Of a stretch of 64,000 nucleotides of DNA, positions 2,540 to 39,956 are shown piece by piece (the first letter of the stretch is position 1; each line of letters opens with the position of its first letter). Under the pieces are notes generated by a model. It was not told where the DNA came from, ran no database searches, and saw nothing but the letters and a program-made list of their open reading frames with translations. A program made the translations under genes and the position numbers. This DNA is from Escherichia coli (GTDB lineage Bacteria; Pseudomonadota; Gammaproteobacteria; Enterobacterales; Enterobacteriaceae), in NCBI RefSeq assembly GCF_036507355.1, contig NZ_AP027877.1; one strand, written 5' to 3'.

Positions 2540-3271
2540 CTAGCTGCGCTGACGCACCGCTTCAAATAAGCAAATTCCGGTTGCAACCGAAACGTTCAGG
2601 GAAGAAACACTTCCTGCCATTGGGATGCTGATCAACTCATCGCAATGTTCACGGGTCAGGCGACGCATACCTTCACCTTCCGCGCCCATCACCAGCGCCA
2701 GGCGTCCGGTCATTTTGCTCTGAAAGAGTGTATGATCCGCCTCGCCTGCCGTACCGACGATCCAGATATTCTCTTCCTGCAACATACGCATGGTGCGCGC
2801 AAGGTTAGTCACCCGAATCAGTGGAACGCTTTCTGCCGCGCCGCAGGCTACTTTTTTCGCCGTGGCGTTGAGCTGTGCGGAGCGATCTTTCGGCACAATC
2901 ACCGCGTGAACGCCAGCGGCGTCCGCGCTACGCAGGCACGCGCCGAGGTTGTGCGGATCGGTTACACCGTCGAGGATCAGCAGGAACGGTTGATCGAGCG
3001 AAGCGATCAGATCCGGCAGATCGTTTTCCTGATACTGACGTCCTGGCTTCACGCGGGCGATAATGCCCTGATGCACGGCACCGTCGCTTTTCTCGTCGAG
3101 ATATTGGCGGTTTGCCAACTGGATAACCACGCCCTGAGACTCAAGGGCATGAATCAGCGGTAACAGACGTTTATCTTCACGGCCTTTTAAAATAAAGACT
3201 TCCTGAAAACGTTCAGGGGCGCGCTCCAGCAGGGCCTGCACTGCGTGGATGCCGTAAATCATTTCGCTCAT
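2540..3271 (-). CDS. rlmB: 23S rRNA (guanosine-2'-O)-methyltransferase RlmB
   Basis: 243-aa [20 protein letters not shown]..., SpoU-type methyltransferase; ATG at 3271. Confidence 0.93.
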
Positions 3272-3295
3272 TAATGTACTCGTTGTTTACGTTTT

Positions 3296-3395
3296 GCCTG
3301 ATGCACTACGTTTATCCGGTCTACATGATCCCTGCAATATATTGAATTTGCGTGATTATGTAGGCCGGATAAGGCGTTCACGCCGCATCCGGCAT
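3296..3395. repeat. REP/BIME-type palindromic repeat pair between rnr and rlmB
   Basis: gcctgatgcactacgtttatccggtctaca ... tgtaggccggataaggcgttcacgccgcatccggca: two inverted REP-like units. Confidence 0.6.
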
Positions 3396-3451
3396 GAACA
3401 AAGCGCATTTTGTCAGCAATCTAACCCTCTTCTGTTTGAAGAGGGTAATGA

Positions 3452-5893
3452 TCACTCTGCCACTTTTTTCTTCGCCGCACGCTTCGCTTTGGTCGCTGCA
3501 GCTATTTTCTGCGTTTTCGCCGATGGCTTTTTCGCTTTTCTCGCGTCTTTCTTCGCTGCTTTCGGCTTCGTTTTTTTCTCACCGCGGAAGGCGCTGTCTG
3601 GCTCAAAGTTTACCTTTTTACCGACCTGACGACGCTTGCCGCCTTTTTTACCTGCATCGCCTTTTTTCGCTTTCTCGCGCGCCGTTTTACCGACGTTGCG
3701 CGGTGCGCGTTCGCTGGAGATCAGGCTAAAGTCGATTTTGCGCTCGTCCATATTAACCGCTTCGACGCGAACTTCCACGCGATCGCCCAGGCGATAAGTC
3801 TGACCGCTGGATTCACCCATCAGGCGTTGCCCTACCTGGTCAAAGCGATAGTAGTCATTGTCCAGCGAAGAGACATGGACCAGACCATCGATGAACAAGT
3901 CGTCCAGACGGACGAAGAAGCCAAAGCCAGTGACGCTGGAAATTACGCCTTTAAAGACGTTACCTACCTGGTCGAGCATAAAGTCACACTTCAGCCAGTC
4001 AGCCACATCGCGCGTTGCTTCGTCGGCACGACGTTCTGCCATCGAACAGTGCTGACCCAGTTGCAGCATCTCTTCCATCGAATAATGGTAGCCGCCGGTT
4101 TCAGTGGTGTTACCCTGATGCCCCTGCTCTTTCGCCAGCAGATACTTAATGGCGCGGTGCAGCGTCAGGTCAGGATAACGACGAATCGGCGAAGTAAAGT
4201 GCGCATAGGACTGCAATGCCAGACCGAAGTGACCACGGTTTTCCGGATCGTAAATCGCCTGTTTCATCGAGCGCAGCAGCATGGTTTGCAGCATTTCTGC
4301 GTCAGGACGATCGGCAACAGACTCCAGCAACTCTGCATAGTCGCGCGGTTCCGGCTTGTTACCGCCCGGCAATTCCAGCCCCAGTTCCGCCAGCACTGAA
4401 CGGAAAGAGGTAATCGCTTCGGTGCTCGGCTTGTCGTGAATACGGAACAGTGCCGGTTCTTTGGCTTTCTCAACGAAACGCGCCGCCGAGATATTCGCCA
4501 GAATCATGCACTCTTCAATTAACTTGTGCGCGTCGTTACGCTGGGTCTGTTCGATACGCTCAATACGGCGTTCAGCGTTGAAAATGAACTTCGCTTCTTC
4601 GCTCTCAAATGAGATCCCGCCGCGTTCTTCACGGGCTTTATCCAGCACTTTATAGAGGTTATGCAACTCTTCGAGATGCTTAACCAGCGGGGCGTACTGC
4701 TCGCGCAGATCCTGATCGCCCTGCAGAATATGCCAGACTTTGGTGTAGGTCAGACGCGCGTGAGAGCTCATCACCGCTTCGTAGAATTTGTAGCCAGTCA
4801 GGCGGCCTTTCGACGAAACCGTCATCTCGCACACCATACACAGGCGGTCTACCTGCGGGTTGAGCGAACACAGGCCGTTAGAGAGCACTTCCGGCAGCAT
4901 CGGGATAACCTGCGAAGGGAAGTACACCGACGTGCCACGGTTACGCGCTTCTCTGTCCAGCGGCGTTGGCGGACGCACATAGTAGCTGACGTCAGCAATC
5001 GCGACCCATAAACGCCAGCCGCCGCCGCGTTTTTTCTCGCAGTAAACTGCATCGTCAAAGTCACGGGCGTCTTCGCCATCAATGGTGACCAGCGGTAAAT
5101 CGCGCAGATCAACACGGCCCGCTTTTGCTTCTTCCGGCACTTCTTCTTTCAGCCCGGCAACCTGTTGCTCAACAGCCTGCGGCCAGATGTACGGAATTTC
5201 ATGGGTACGCAGAGCGATATCAACCGCCATGCCGGTGCCCATATTGTCGCCCAGCACTTCGACGATTTTACCCACCGCTTTGGTACGGCGAGTCGGGCGT
5301 TGGGTCAGTTCAACAACCACCACAAAGCCCATCCGCGCGCCCATGATCTGATCGGGCGGGATTAAGATATCGAAGCTCAGACGGCTATCGTCAGGAACCA
5401 CAAAGCCGACGCCCGCTTCGGTAAAGTAGCGACCAACAATCTGGCTGGTTTTTGGCACCAGTACGCGGACAATACGCGCTTCACGACGACCTTTACGGTC
5501 AGCGCCCAGCGGCTGCGCCAGCACCTGATCGCCATGAATGCAGGTTTTCATCTGCTCGCTGGAGAGATACAAATCATCTTTACGCCCTTCAACCCGCAGA
5601 AAGCCGTAGCCATCACGGTGGCCAATAACGGTACCTTTCACCAGGTCGAGGCGTTCCGGCAGCGCATAGCACTGACGACGAGTAAAGACCAGTTGACCAT
5701 CGCGCTCCATCGCGCGCAGGCGGCGACGCAGGCCTTCAAGCTGCTCTTCGCCTTCAATGTGCAGTTCTACCGCCAGCTCATCACGGCTGGCCGGTTTTTC
5801 ACGTTTGGTTAAATGTTCGAGGATAAATTCCCGACTAGGGATGGGATTCGCGTATTTTTCAGCTTCGCGTTCCTGGAAAGGATCTTGTGACAT
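3452..5893 (-). CDS. rnr: Ribonuclease R
   Basis: Track ORF trimmed to the internal ATG at 5893 ([17 protein letters not shown]..., 813 aa) with GGAGG 7 nt upstream; lysine-rich C-terminal tail. Confidence 0.93.
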
Positions 5894-35118: not shown

Positions 35119-35298
35119 ATCAGGCTCCGGAGAATTGGGGCCGTCCCCGGTGAAAAGAGGCGTTTGCAGGTCGTCCTGCAAAGCTGATGGTTGAACGGAT
35201 ATTTTGCCAGGTGGCAGAGGAATTTCAACTATTACCTTTGTGACTATCGCAAAAAAACAAACGGCACGACACAGCTGTCGTACCGTTATTGCTTATTG

Positions 35299-37369: not shown

Positions 37370-37400
37370 CTGATTAAACAGGGAAGTCAAACATTAAAAT

Positions 37401-37501
<101 letters not shown>

Positions 37502-37681
37502 AGAGCAACAAACGCAAGTACAGCAACCTGTCATTAAACTGGGAAATTTAATCTTTGCCCGTTGCATAACCTTTAATTATTCATATGCATTGCTGTTGTT
37601 ACTCTTTATATAACTAACACCAATAAGGTGATGCTGCCAACTTACTGATTTAGTGTATGATGGTGTTTTTGAGGTGCTCCA

Positions 37682-37957
37682 GTGGCTTCTGTTTCTATCA
37701 GCTGTCCCTCCTGTTCAGCTACTGACGGGGTGGTGCGTAACGGCAAAAGCACCGCCGGACATCAGCGCTATCTCTGCTCTCACTGCCGTAAAACATGGCA
37801 ACTGCAGTTCACTTACACCGCTTCTCAACCCGGTACGCACCAGAAAATCATTGATATGGCCATGAATGGCGTTGGATGCCGGGCAACAGCCCGCATTATG
37901 GGCATTGGCCTCAACACGATTTTACGTCACTTAAAAAACTCAGGCCGCAGTCGGTAA
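37682..37957 (+). CDS. insA: IS1 InsA (transposition inhibitor / N-terminal part of the InsAB' transposase)
   Basis: 91-aa [43 protein letters not shown]... (zinc finger plus HTH). Confidence 0.92.
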
Positions 37958-38379
37958 CCTCGCGCATACAGCCGGGCAGTGACGTCATCGTCTGCGCGGA
38001 AATGGACGAACAGTGGGGCTATGTCGGGGCTAAATCGCGCCAGCGCTGGCTGTTTTACGCGTATGACAGGCTCCGGAAGACGGTTGTTGCGCACGTATTC
38101 GGTGAACGCACGATGGCGACGCTGGGGCGTCTTATGAGCCTGCTGTCACCCTTTGACGTGGTGATATGGATGACGGATGGCTGGCCGCTGTATGAATCCC
38201 GCCTGAAGGGAAAGCTGCACGTAATCAGCAAGCGATATACGCAGCGAATTGAGCGGCATAACCTGAATCTGAGGCAGCACCTGGCACGGCTGGGACGGAA
38301 GTCGCTGTCGTTCTCAAAATCGGTGGAGCTGCATGACAAAGTCATCGGGCATTATCTGAACATAAAACACTATCAATAA
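37876..38379 (+). CDS. insB: IS1 InsB reading frame (expressed as InsAB' after a -1 frameshift)
   Basis: -1 frame relative to insA; [16 protein letters not shown]...DDE-type catalytic region, 167 aa. Confidence 0.9.
37933..37939 (+). other. IS1 programmed -1 ribosomal frameshift site (AAAAAAC)
   Basis: A6C heptamer in the insA/insB overlap. Confidence 0.6.
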
Positions 38380-38540
38380 GTTGGAGTCATTACCCACCAA
38401 TAATTAACCTTTCTTTTCTGTTTATATAGAGTGAGTACGGCTATTTATGTTATTTTAACAACTATTACTACCAAGCCCATTTATCTGGCTTATAAATTAA
38501 AATTAATTATTTAATTGAGAAATGGTTAGGGAGAACCTAC

Positions 38541-39410
38541 ATGGCCATAAGCATCAAGGGTGTTAATACCGGTGTTATTCGCAAGAGTAATAATTTCATT
38601 GCACTGGCGCTGAAAATTAAAGAACCTCGCAATAAAGAATCGTTGTTCTTTATGTCTGTCATGGAACTGCGCGACCTGCTGATTGCGCTGGAAAGTCGTC
38701 TGCATCAAAAGCATAAACTGGATGCTGCTGCACGCCTTCAGTATGAGCAAGCTCGCGATAAAGTCATTAAGAAAATGGCAGAAAACATCCCAGAAATTCT
38801 GGTTGATGAGCTTAAAAATGCCGATATTAATCGTCGGGTTAACACGCTGGAACTTACCGATAATCAAGGCGAAAATCTTACCTTCGTATTAACGCTACAT
38901 GACGGTAGCAAATGTGAGTTAGTCGTCAATGAATTGCAGATTGAAATGCTGGCGCGAGCAATCATTCATGCAATTAATAATGCAGAAATGCGCGAACTGG
39001 CATTACGTATTACCTCACTGTTAGATTTCCTGCCGTTATACGACGTTGACTGCCAGGAAAATGGCAATCTGGAATATGACACCTATTCCCAACCGGAATG
39101 GAAACATAACTTGTTCGACCATTATCTGGCGGTGCTTTACCGCTTTAAAGATGAAAGTGGCAAAGAACAATTTAGCGGCGCAGTGGTGAAAACGCGTGAA
39201 GCAACGCCGGGTAAAGAAATAGAGGCGATCACTCGCCGAATGCTTGATTTCAGCCCACGACTGAAAAAACTCGTGGGTGTGCCATGTCAGGTCTATGTTC
39301 GCACCGTAGCGGCGAATAACGCCCAACCGCTAACCCAGGATCAATGCTTACGCGCGCTGCATCACTTACGTGTTCAATCCACCAGCAAAACTGCACCACA
39401 GGCGAAATAA
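38541..39410 (+). CDS. yjeJ: Uncharacterised protein YjeJ
   Basis: 289-aa ORF MAISIKGVNTGVIRKSNNFIALALKIKEPRN...; AT-rich codon usage. Confidence 0.8.
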   Translation: MAISIKGVNTGVIRKSNNFIALALKIKEPRNKESLFFMSVMELRDLLIALESRLHQKHKLDAAARLQYEQARDKVIKKMAENIPEILVDELKNADINRRVNTLELTDNQGENLTFVLTLHDGSKCELVVNELQIEMLARAIIHAINNAEMRELALRITSLLDFLPLYDVDCQENGNLEYDTYSQPEWKHNLFDHYLAVLYRFKDESGKEQFSGAVVKTREATPGKEIEAITRRMLDFSPRLKKLVGVPCQVYVRTVAANNAQPLTQDQCLRALHHLRVQSTSKTAPQAK

Positions 39411-39477
39411 TCTCATCTTTGCTAATGCGAGGCTGGAGCCATCCAGCCTGAAATGACTGATAACGTGATCGTTGGTC

Positions 39478-39580
<103 letters not shown>

Positions 39581-39602
39581 TTATACGTTTGTCACCATCA
39601 CA

Positions 39603-39956
39603 TCAGTTCGGGCACTTATAAACCTGACCGATAATCTGGCTATCCGTCGGGACAAAACTGGACAACATTCCCTGCGACGGGCTGCTGATGCCATAAATCA
39701 CGTTACCGCCCATTGCAGCCGCCTGGTTGCGCAGATCGTTTGCTGCGCCGCGCATAGAACCGCCTTCTTCTCCGTGTTGCCCGGAAAGCCAGTTGCTTTG
39801 CTTACCTGTCGCAGTACCAATCAGCTGGCACTCTGCGCCTGGCTGCTCGTCCACAATGCGTACACTCTGACCGGCAGCACTCAATTCGTTGCTGGAGCTA
39901 CAACCCGCCATCAGTAGCGCGGCACCGACAATCCCTGCTAAGTATTTTACGTGCAT
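39603..39956 (-). CDS. yjeI: Lipoprotein YjeI (DUF4156)
   Basis: ATG at 39956 (MHVKYLAGIVGAALLMAGCSSS..., 117 aa), lipobox LMAGC. Confidence 0.85.
   Translation of the reverse strand: MHVKYLAGIVGAALLMAGCSSSNELSAAGQSVRIVDEQPGAECQLIGTATGKQSNWLSGQHGEEGGSMRGAANDLRNQAAAMGGNVIYGISSPSQGMLSSFVPTDSQIIGQVYKCPN

Follow-up and report, generated by a model that had tools for sequence, protein, structure and literature searches.

IS1 is among the best-characterised insertion sequences, and the principle that it can create hybrid promoters was reportedly set out by Prentki et al. in 1986. The IS1A copy of Escherichia coli K-12 MG1655 (NC_000913.3, 19796-20563) is the element most closely comparable to the one described here, and it occupies another chromosomal site, K-12 being without an IS1 between epmB and yjeJ. 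Transposition of IS1 generates target duplications of 8 or 9 bp (PMC12428005) and favours AT-rich DNA (PMC12625342); H-NS-bound AT-rich DNA has also been put forward as a general transposon trap, an argument made for IS5-family elements and not for IS1 (PMC11335895). The ends of IS1 carry an outward -35 box able to form hybrid promoters, for which a -10 hexamer at the right distance is needed, and depending on position an upstream IS1 leaves the downstream transcript increased, decreased or unchanged (PMC8764528; PMC9330008). The spacer between yjeJ and epmB has itself appeared in laboratory evolution under amoxicillin: five ampC amplicons in Table 1 of that study start there, and a 768-bp IS1 is present at some of the amplicon junctions (PMC12625342). 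The gene yjeJ has been chosen as a neutral place for a linked marker (PMC10679819).

The 64-kb stretch of E. coli DNA analysed here (the window) contains one IS1 copy only, as judged from either IS1 end, and this copy lies between epmB and yjeJ (Table 1). It agrees with IS1A of K-12 in length, terminal repeats and insA/A6C/insB organisation, and the two are identical at 765 of 768 bases (99.6%). The three differences, at IS1 positions 278, 444 and 486, leave the terminal repeats unaffected and change one residue of InsA (V75I) and two of the InsB frame (R10H and S65R). The terminal inverted repeats are imperfect, with 18 of 23 bases complementary, and the ends begin with GGTGATG and GGTAATG, as is required of IS1. 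A conceptual -1 shift at AAAAAAC yields a 232-aa InsAB' fusion with no internal stop, which matches the NCBIfam model NF033558 'IS1 family transposase' with 244.8 bits (cut-off 100) and also the N-terminal zinc-binding domain NF050000. The element is a member of the IS1 family (IS1A/IS1R type), every defining feature that can be tested in a sequence having been found, that is, the length, the repeats, the duplication, the insA/A6C/insB arrangement, the transposase model and the identity to IS1A. Judged from these intact parts, the copy looks competent for transposition and would be expected to undergo the programmed frameshift. The position of the promoter-like site overlapping the left terminal repeat matches that of the known IS1 promoter within IRL.

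Table 1. Coordinates of the features in and around the IS1 insertion between epmB and yjeJ (window positions)
Feature	Start	End	Strand	Remarks
epmB (EF-P beta-lysylation protein), upstream, intact	36341	37369	+	TIGR03821, 534 bits (cut-off 369)
Left target-site duplication copy, 9 bp, CACCAATAA	37618	37626	.	single copy at the corresponding place in K-12
Complete IS1 element, 768 bp	37627	38394	+	insA/insB co-directional with epmB and yjeJ
Left terminal inverted repeat (IRL), GGTGATGCTGCCAACTTACTGAT	37627	37649	+	23 nt, 78% complementary to IRR
Promoter-like site overlapping IRL, CTGCCA-16-TATGAT	37634	37661	+	consensus scan, 9/12 matches
insA, GTG start, 91 aa, intact	37682	37957	+	V75I relative to K-12 InsA
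insB frame, 167 codons, intact	37876	38379	+	C-terminal part of InsAB' transposase
A6C (AAAAAAC) programmed -1 frameshift motif	37933	37939	+	
Right terminal inverted repeat (IRR), ATCAATAAGTTGGAGTCATTACC	38372	38394	+	outward -35-like TTGGAG inside, 8 bp from the end
Right target-site duplication copy, CACCAATAA	38395	38403	.	
Predicted sigma-70 yjeJ promoter	38404	38432	+	-35 TTAACC 38404-38409, 17-bp spacer, -10 TAGAGT 38427-38432
yjeJ, 289 aa, downstream, intact	38541	39410	+	Pfam PF15922, function unknown

The direct repeat flanking the element is perfect over 9 bp at both IS1 ends, with a spacing of 777, and cannot be extended by one base in either direction. Since a perfect 9-bp repeat sitting precisely at the two ends of an element would occur by chance with a probability of about 4e-6 (4^-9), and since excision of IS1 together with one copy restores the spacer length of K-12, the repeat CACCAATAA is a genuine target-site duplication. 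The earlier note had described a complete 768-bp IS1 with insA, the A6C motif and insB intact and a perfect 9-bp duplication, situated 257 bp downstream of epmB and 146 bp upstream of the yjeJ start codon. All of its coordinates and counts are correct, and so are the two distances, measured from the epmB stop codon (37369) to IS1 and from IS1 to the yjeJ ATG (38541). Its reading of the event as a simple transposition is borne out as well by a canonical IS1 bounded by a 9-bp target duplication.

The surroundings of the element are AT-rich, with a GC content of 0.31 in the promoter-proximal spacer (264 bp, from 37500), compared to 0.45 in yjeJ and 0.51 in the whole window. A search of the epmB-yjeJ spacer against Rfam returned no RNA family, and the YjeJ protein gave no match in NCBIfam, PADLOC or the PDB.

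Removal of positions 37627-38394 together with one copy of the repeat, the check suggested in the earlier note, rejoins the flanks into a contiguous 394-bp spacer that aligns to the 394-bp spacer of K-12 MG1655 with 6 substitutions and no gaps. In the K-12 spacer, CACCAATAA occurs once, at 4374372-4374380. As a probe for the empty site we reconstructed 254 bp of it, steering clear of the REP elements; of 5,426 complete E. coli genomes, 5,367 (~99%) have this sequence without interruption. The junctions were searched in the same genomes with 140-bp probes placed across each of them, one ungapped high-identity piece being required, and neither the exact left nor the exact right junction was found in any of the 5,426. 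The apparent full-coverage matches of these probes proved to be two joined pieces, or gapped alignments to an IS1 a few bases off. A 40-nt sequence across the left junction likewise had no exact match in the GTDB species representatives (one genome per species) or in JGI metagenome contigs. Among the matches listed for an identical YjeJ protein, the contigs have an empty epmB-yjeJ spacer without IS1.

At a larger scale, the regions 12.6-37.6 kb and 38.4-63.4 kb of the window each align as a single colinear piece with many E. coli chromosomes, and the cad region also aligns as one uninterrupted piece. An origin in Shigella was considered on account of the IS1, but with a single IS in the 64 kb and an unbroken cad region a typical IS-laden Shigella chromosome would seem unlikely. 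The nearest of the 5,426 complete genomes show 99.0-99.4% identity over the 25-kb flanks. Taken with the empty site in MG1655 and in nearly all other complete genomes, the unmatched junctions support a strain- or lineage-specific simple insertion, in keeping with the earlier suggestion that the copy is strain-specific and absent from K-12; a strain-level and a lineage-level origin both fit. The insertion is probably young in evolutionary terms and confined to a single strain or narrow lineage. What we have is a known element at a previously unrecorded yet unremarkable site, and a private IS1 near a dispensable gene in an AT-rich spacer is expected background variation, of little importance beyond annotation. 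The insertion can be used as a strain or lineage marker.

The only published assignment of a yjeJ promoter that we found is that of Shimada et al. (2014), who observed a genomic SELEX peak of the sigma-70 holoenzyme in the yjeJ/yjeK(epmB) spacer and listed TTAACC-17-TAGAGT for yjeJ, with the hexamers placed in silico within the spacer (PMC3946193). The SELEX peak itself spans the whole spacer, and the supplementary tables of Cappable-seq (PMC4782308) and SMRT-Cappable-seq (PMC6131387) yielded no mapped transcription start for yjeJ. A consensus scan relocated TTAACC-17-TAGAGT in the window with 8 of 12 matches, and the motif is conserved both in K-12 and in a divergent lineage with 160 bp less in its spacer. 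The right copy of CACCAATAA ends at 38403 and the -35 box starts at the very next base, 38404, which places IS1 just upstream of the predicted promoter and does not separate it from the gene.

The predicted core promoter and a leader of ~100 nt most likely stay with yjeJ. The claim that the insertion has probably cut yjeJ off from its native promoter is therefore not upheld, as the predicted hexamers at 38404-38432, an in-silico assignment, remain with the gene. Through the 9-bp duplication the sequence from -37 to -45 is retained as well; beyond about -46 of the predicted promoter the upstream DNA belongs to IS1, namely to its right end, which is the point to be considered in work on yjeJ expression in this strain. 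A rival candidate, GTTACT-18-AATAAT, also has 8 of 12 matches; in the empty site it lies across the point of insertion, and IS1 destroys it.

The IS1 insertions known to form hybrid promoters, for instance upstream of afaA in ST131, of acrEF and of blaTEM, resemble the present one in having IS1 upstream with an outward -35-like TTGGAG located 8 bp from its end. They differ from it in having a suitable -10 hexamer, which the window junction does not have. At 16-18 bp from TTGGAG (38381-38386) the flank offers ATTAAC, TTAACC or TAACCT, and the best IS1/flank hybrid is TTGGAG-18-TAACCT, with 7 of 12 matches; a scan for junction-spanning hybrid promoters with at least 8 of 12 matches returned none. 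An IS-generated hybrid promoter was rejected on this ground, no adequate -10 hexamer lying 16-18 bp from TTGGAG. The earlier statement that IS1 can supply outward transcription is true of IS1 generally, but for this junction it is weak, the scan having given no hybrid site of that strength. Low-level read-through to yjeJ from the promoter-like site CTGCCA-16-TATGAT inside IS1 could conceivably still occur, and a scan of the + strand inside IS1 found no intrinsic terminator.

The yjeJ locus has been entered by IS1 repeatedly. Another 26 IS1 copies, no two of them at one position, were mapped in other genomes, the position being the last flanking base before the low-coordinate end of the element, relative to the yjeJ ATG. 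With the copy of the window included, the 27 copies occupy distinct positions from -317 to +1071, with 13 in the 394-bp spacer, 13 inside the 870-bp yjeJ and one downstream. Each of 23 among the 26 other copies has its own duplication of 8-9 bp and of different sequence, which identifies them as independent events. Counting the window, at least 24 independent insertions, in both orientations, have occurred in the ~1.4-kb yjeJ locus of E. coli. The other three copies are without a duplication and show adjacent deletions or rearrangement: next to the CX12-type IS1, present in 7 genomes, 47 bp are deleted, and with them the entire predicted yjeJ promoter; the IS1 of strain 673 is accompanied by a deletion from -29 to +553; and in strain 503440 the right flank of IS1 is rearranged next to groS. 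Sharing of a copy by several related genomes is also seen outside the CX12 type: 5 genomes share an IS1 site with a 9-bp duplication spanning -84 to -76.

Seven of the insertions, that of the window included, have their duplications or junctions within 57 bp (-177 to -121). Copies at neighbouring sites include the IS1 of EC23HZZ201, 6 bp upstream of the window site, that of ET745, 13 bp downstream, and that of S1-INA-02-B, 20 bp upstream and in the opposite orientation; they share with the window copy the element type, the AT-rich spacer and a duplication of 8-9 bp, and the different target sequence of each points to an independent event. In ET745 and AZ 186 the element sits between the -35 and -10 hexamers of the predicted yjeJ promoter, whereas the window copy leaves the promoter whole. 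IS1 lies in the yjeJ leader in the 21AR0275 group and in strain 4114, and in 13 cases it splits the yjeJ coding sequence. Loss of yjeJ expression is evidently tolerated. Orientation was counted with one query carrying IS1 forward and one carrying it reversed, and 16 genomes were found each way (at least 80% query coverage); a suspected orientation bias in the locus was dropped as an artefact of query design, the reversed-IS1 query having matched an equal number of genomes.

The best explanation of the window, and one that we hold to be very probable, is the ordinary transposition of an IS1A-type copy into the AT-rich, promoter-proximal part of the epmB-yjeJ spacer, with duplication of CACCAATAA. 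The landing site would be explained by the preference of IS1 for AT-rich DNA and by the dispensability of yjeJ, and not by selection for a new function. The effect on yjeJ would probably be modest, with the core promoter staying in place and the more distal DNA, including a possible UP element or regulator sites, being replaced. Any read-through from epmB would now be 768 bp of IS1 away from yjeJ, and no good hybrid promoter would be expected to arise.

A selected regulatory mutation, in which IS1 either silences yjeJ by removing its real promoter or upstream activating DNA, or activates it through outward or read-through transcription from IS1 or through disruption of H-NS-type silencing of the AT-rich region, appears unlikely to us. 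Such an effect would have precedents, as upstream IS1 insertions can raise, lower or not alter a downstream transcript (PMC8764528) and fusion promoters are documented for IS1 (PMC9330008). In the window, insA and insB are read toward yjeJ with no + strand intrinsic terminator in IS1, the alternative candidate promoter across the insertion point is lost, and the seven insertions within 57 bp cluster around the promoter. Against this stand the published promoter hexamers, which are intact, and the 7/12 score of TTGGAG-18-TAACCT as the best hybrid. The table of Shimada et al. carries no H-NS flag for the spacer (PMC3946193), and yjeJ has no known phenotype and serves as a neutral marker site (PMC10679819). 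The IS1 copies of other strains, which occur in both orientations, in the promoter, in the leader and throughout the coding sequence, fit a tolerated loss better than a tuning of expression. Somewhat more room has to be given to the possibility, still a minority one in our judgement, that the IS1 is older and fixed in an E. coli (or Shigella) lineage missing from the complete-genome collection. The identity of only 99.0-99.4% to the nearest of the 5,426 complete genomes indicates that the lineage is unsampled there, and some other IS1 copies of the locus are common to related genomes (the groups of 5 and 7). On the other hand, the duplication is perfect, the reading frames are intact and the element is 3 bases from K-12 IS1A; the junction is absent from the metagenome contigs and GTDB representatives searched, and the identical YjeJ allele stands on empty-site contigs among the matches listed. 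These features do not date the insertion precisely.

With ampC in the neighbourhood, one may ask whether the IS1 belongs to a composite transposon, or whether the ampC region was duplicated or amplified through IS1 and the present copy is a footprint or one arm of that event. ampC ends ~3.4 kb left of IS1 (ORF end 34182; K-12 map), and five of the laboratory amplicons described above begin in the same spacer, IS1 being present at some amplicon junctions. Nevertheless, nothing in the window points to duplicated flanks: the 64 kb contain one IS1, its clean 9-bp duplication is the signature of a simple insertion and not of a recombinant junction, and the DNA on either side is single-copy and colinear with that of other genomes. 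We regard this origin as highly improbable, and a composite transposon or IS1-bounded amplicon was discarded, neither a second IS1 nor duplicated flanks being present within the 64-kb window. Multicopy repeats such as IS1 can confuse assemblers, and most E. coli genomes carry IS1 in several copies, the median number of matching places being ~10. Even so, a perfect 9-bp duplication of a single-copy target at both ends would not arise from a repeat misjoin, nor would the flanks then close up to the reference spacer, so that placement of IS1 at the wrong site by the assembly has a practically negligible probability. Ordinary transposition of an IS1A-type copy is thus the reading that we retain for the window.

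The locus is shown by the mapped copies to be a recurrent AT-rich IS1 target in a dispensable region, and this documented recurrence is the sole mildly interesting by-product of the analysis. Repeated natural insertion of IS1 at yjeJ concerns those who rely on the gene being a neutral site, as well as work on amplification of the ampC region, the boundaries of which are often in this spacer. The status of an exceptional hot spot is unproven, the genome-wide counts including many clonally inherited copies. It is very doubtful, in our view, that the promoter-proximal spacer and yjeJ form a genuine natural IS1 hot spot, the cause of which could be nucleoid-protein or DNA-structure capture rather than mere insertion tolerance, and the copies of which could pre-position homology for IS1-mediated ampC amplification under beta-lactam pressure. 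If this were true, natural insertions would be connected with the amplicon boundaries that arose at yjeJ/epmB in the laboratory evolution experiment. On a rough scale, with clonal copies counted and with ~57,000 chromosomal IS1 left ends in the collection (the flank's own matches subtracted), the last 190 bp of the spacer carry IS1 in 19 genomes, compared to ~2 expected if insertions were uniform, an excess of roughly 8-fold.

The yjeJ locus is a natural target of IS1 that has been hit recurrently. When IS1 copies were mapped in the loci retrieved from other E. coli genomes (L001-L029), over the window equivalents of the region listed in the table, the element was found at 26 distinct positions across 26 other complete genomes, in the epmB-yjeJ spacer, in yjeJ itself or just 3′ of the gene. 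Both orientations are represented, and 23 of these 26 copies carry an 8-9 bp duplication of their own. Seven insertions, counting the one in the window, are clustered in a 57-bp stretch surrounding the predicted promoter of yjeJ.

E. coli EC23HZZ201 (NZ_CP168035.1) has two IS1 elements, each with a separate 9-bp duplication, which flank the yjeJ promoter and the initial 640 bp of yjeJ in a structure resembling a composite transposon. For the copy within yjeJ (+317) of E. coli 503440 (NZ_CP025881.1), the right flank beyond the element runs into groS-groL in inverted order, pointing to an inversion or deletion associated with IS1 in which yjeI was lost together with the 3′ portion of yjeJ. The copy of E. 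coli CX12 (NZ_CP073719.1), also present in six more genomes (hits H153-H158), lacks a target duplication and is adjoined by a 47-bp deletion that takes out the entire predicted yjeJ promoter; this looks like an IS1-mediated adjacent deletion common to one clonal group.

IS621, of the IS110 family, is a further mobile element within the same small region. Its transposase gene is annotated ~250 bp 3′ of yjeJ in three of the retrieved loci (L020, L021 and L029), where it occupies the place of yjeI in other genomes, and all three genomes also have IS1 in yjeJ.

The spacer varies in length as well. A 160-bp segment, which contains a REP-like palindrome pair (I3) and is edged by GGGAAGT and GGGAAAT, is missing from one group of genomes, leaving a spacer of 234 bp (e.g., L011). 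This is an insertion/deletion polymorphism without relation to IS1.

The window lines up colinearly with chromosomes of E. coli on either side of its IS1. Over 25 kb, its best match among 5,426 complete genomes reaches no more than 99.0-99.4% identity, and the best-matching genomes differ between the two sides; either the source lineage has no representative in this collection or the region is mosaic.

Coordinates of features in the window, or in the locus or genome named
Feature	Numbering	Position	Orientation	Score
Colinear segments	window	12600-37590; 38404-63400		
Guanidine-II (mini-ykkC) riboswitch	window	35136-35182	minus	50.4 bits (gathering score 32)
160-bp spacer segment	window	37387-37546		
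Palindrome pair I3	window	37417-37431 / 37466-37480		
Region mapped for IS1	window equivalents	37440-39612		
CX12-type deletion	window equivalents	37622-37626 + 38404-38445		
IS1 pair, EC23HZZ201	L004	1895-2662; 3456-4223	direct	
IS1, 503440	L023	2051-2818	reversed	
IS1, CX12	L017	3396-4163	reversed	
IS621 transposase gene	L020, L021, L029	~3043-4268		
SELEX peak within yjeJ	K-12 (PMC5493296)	4371850		

Genomic SELEX with minor sigma factors placed a holoenzyme-binding peak within yjeJ, reported under the heat-shock sigma section (PMC5493296). The Guanidine-II riboswitch, an already known element, sits 5′ of sugE/gdx, where it would be expected.
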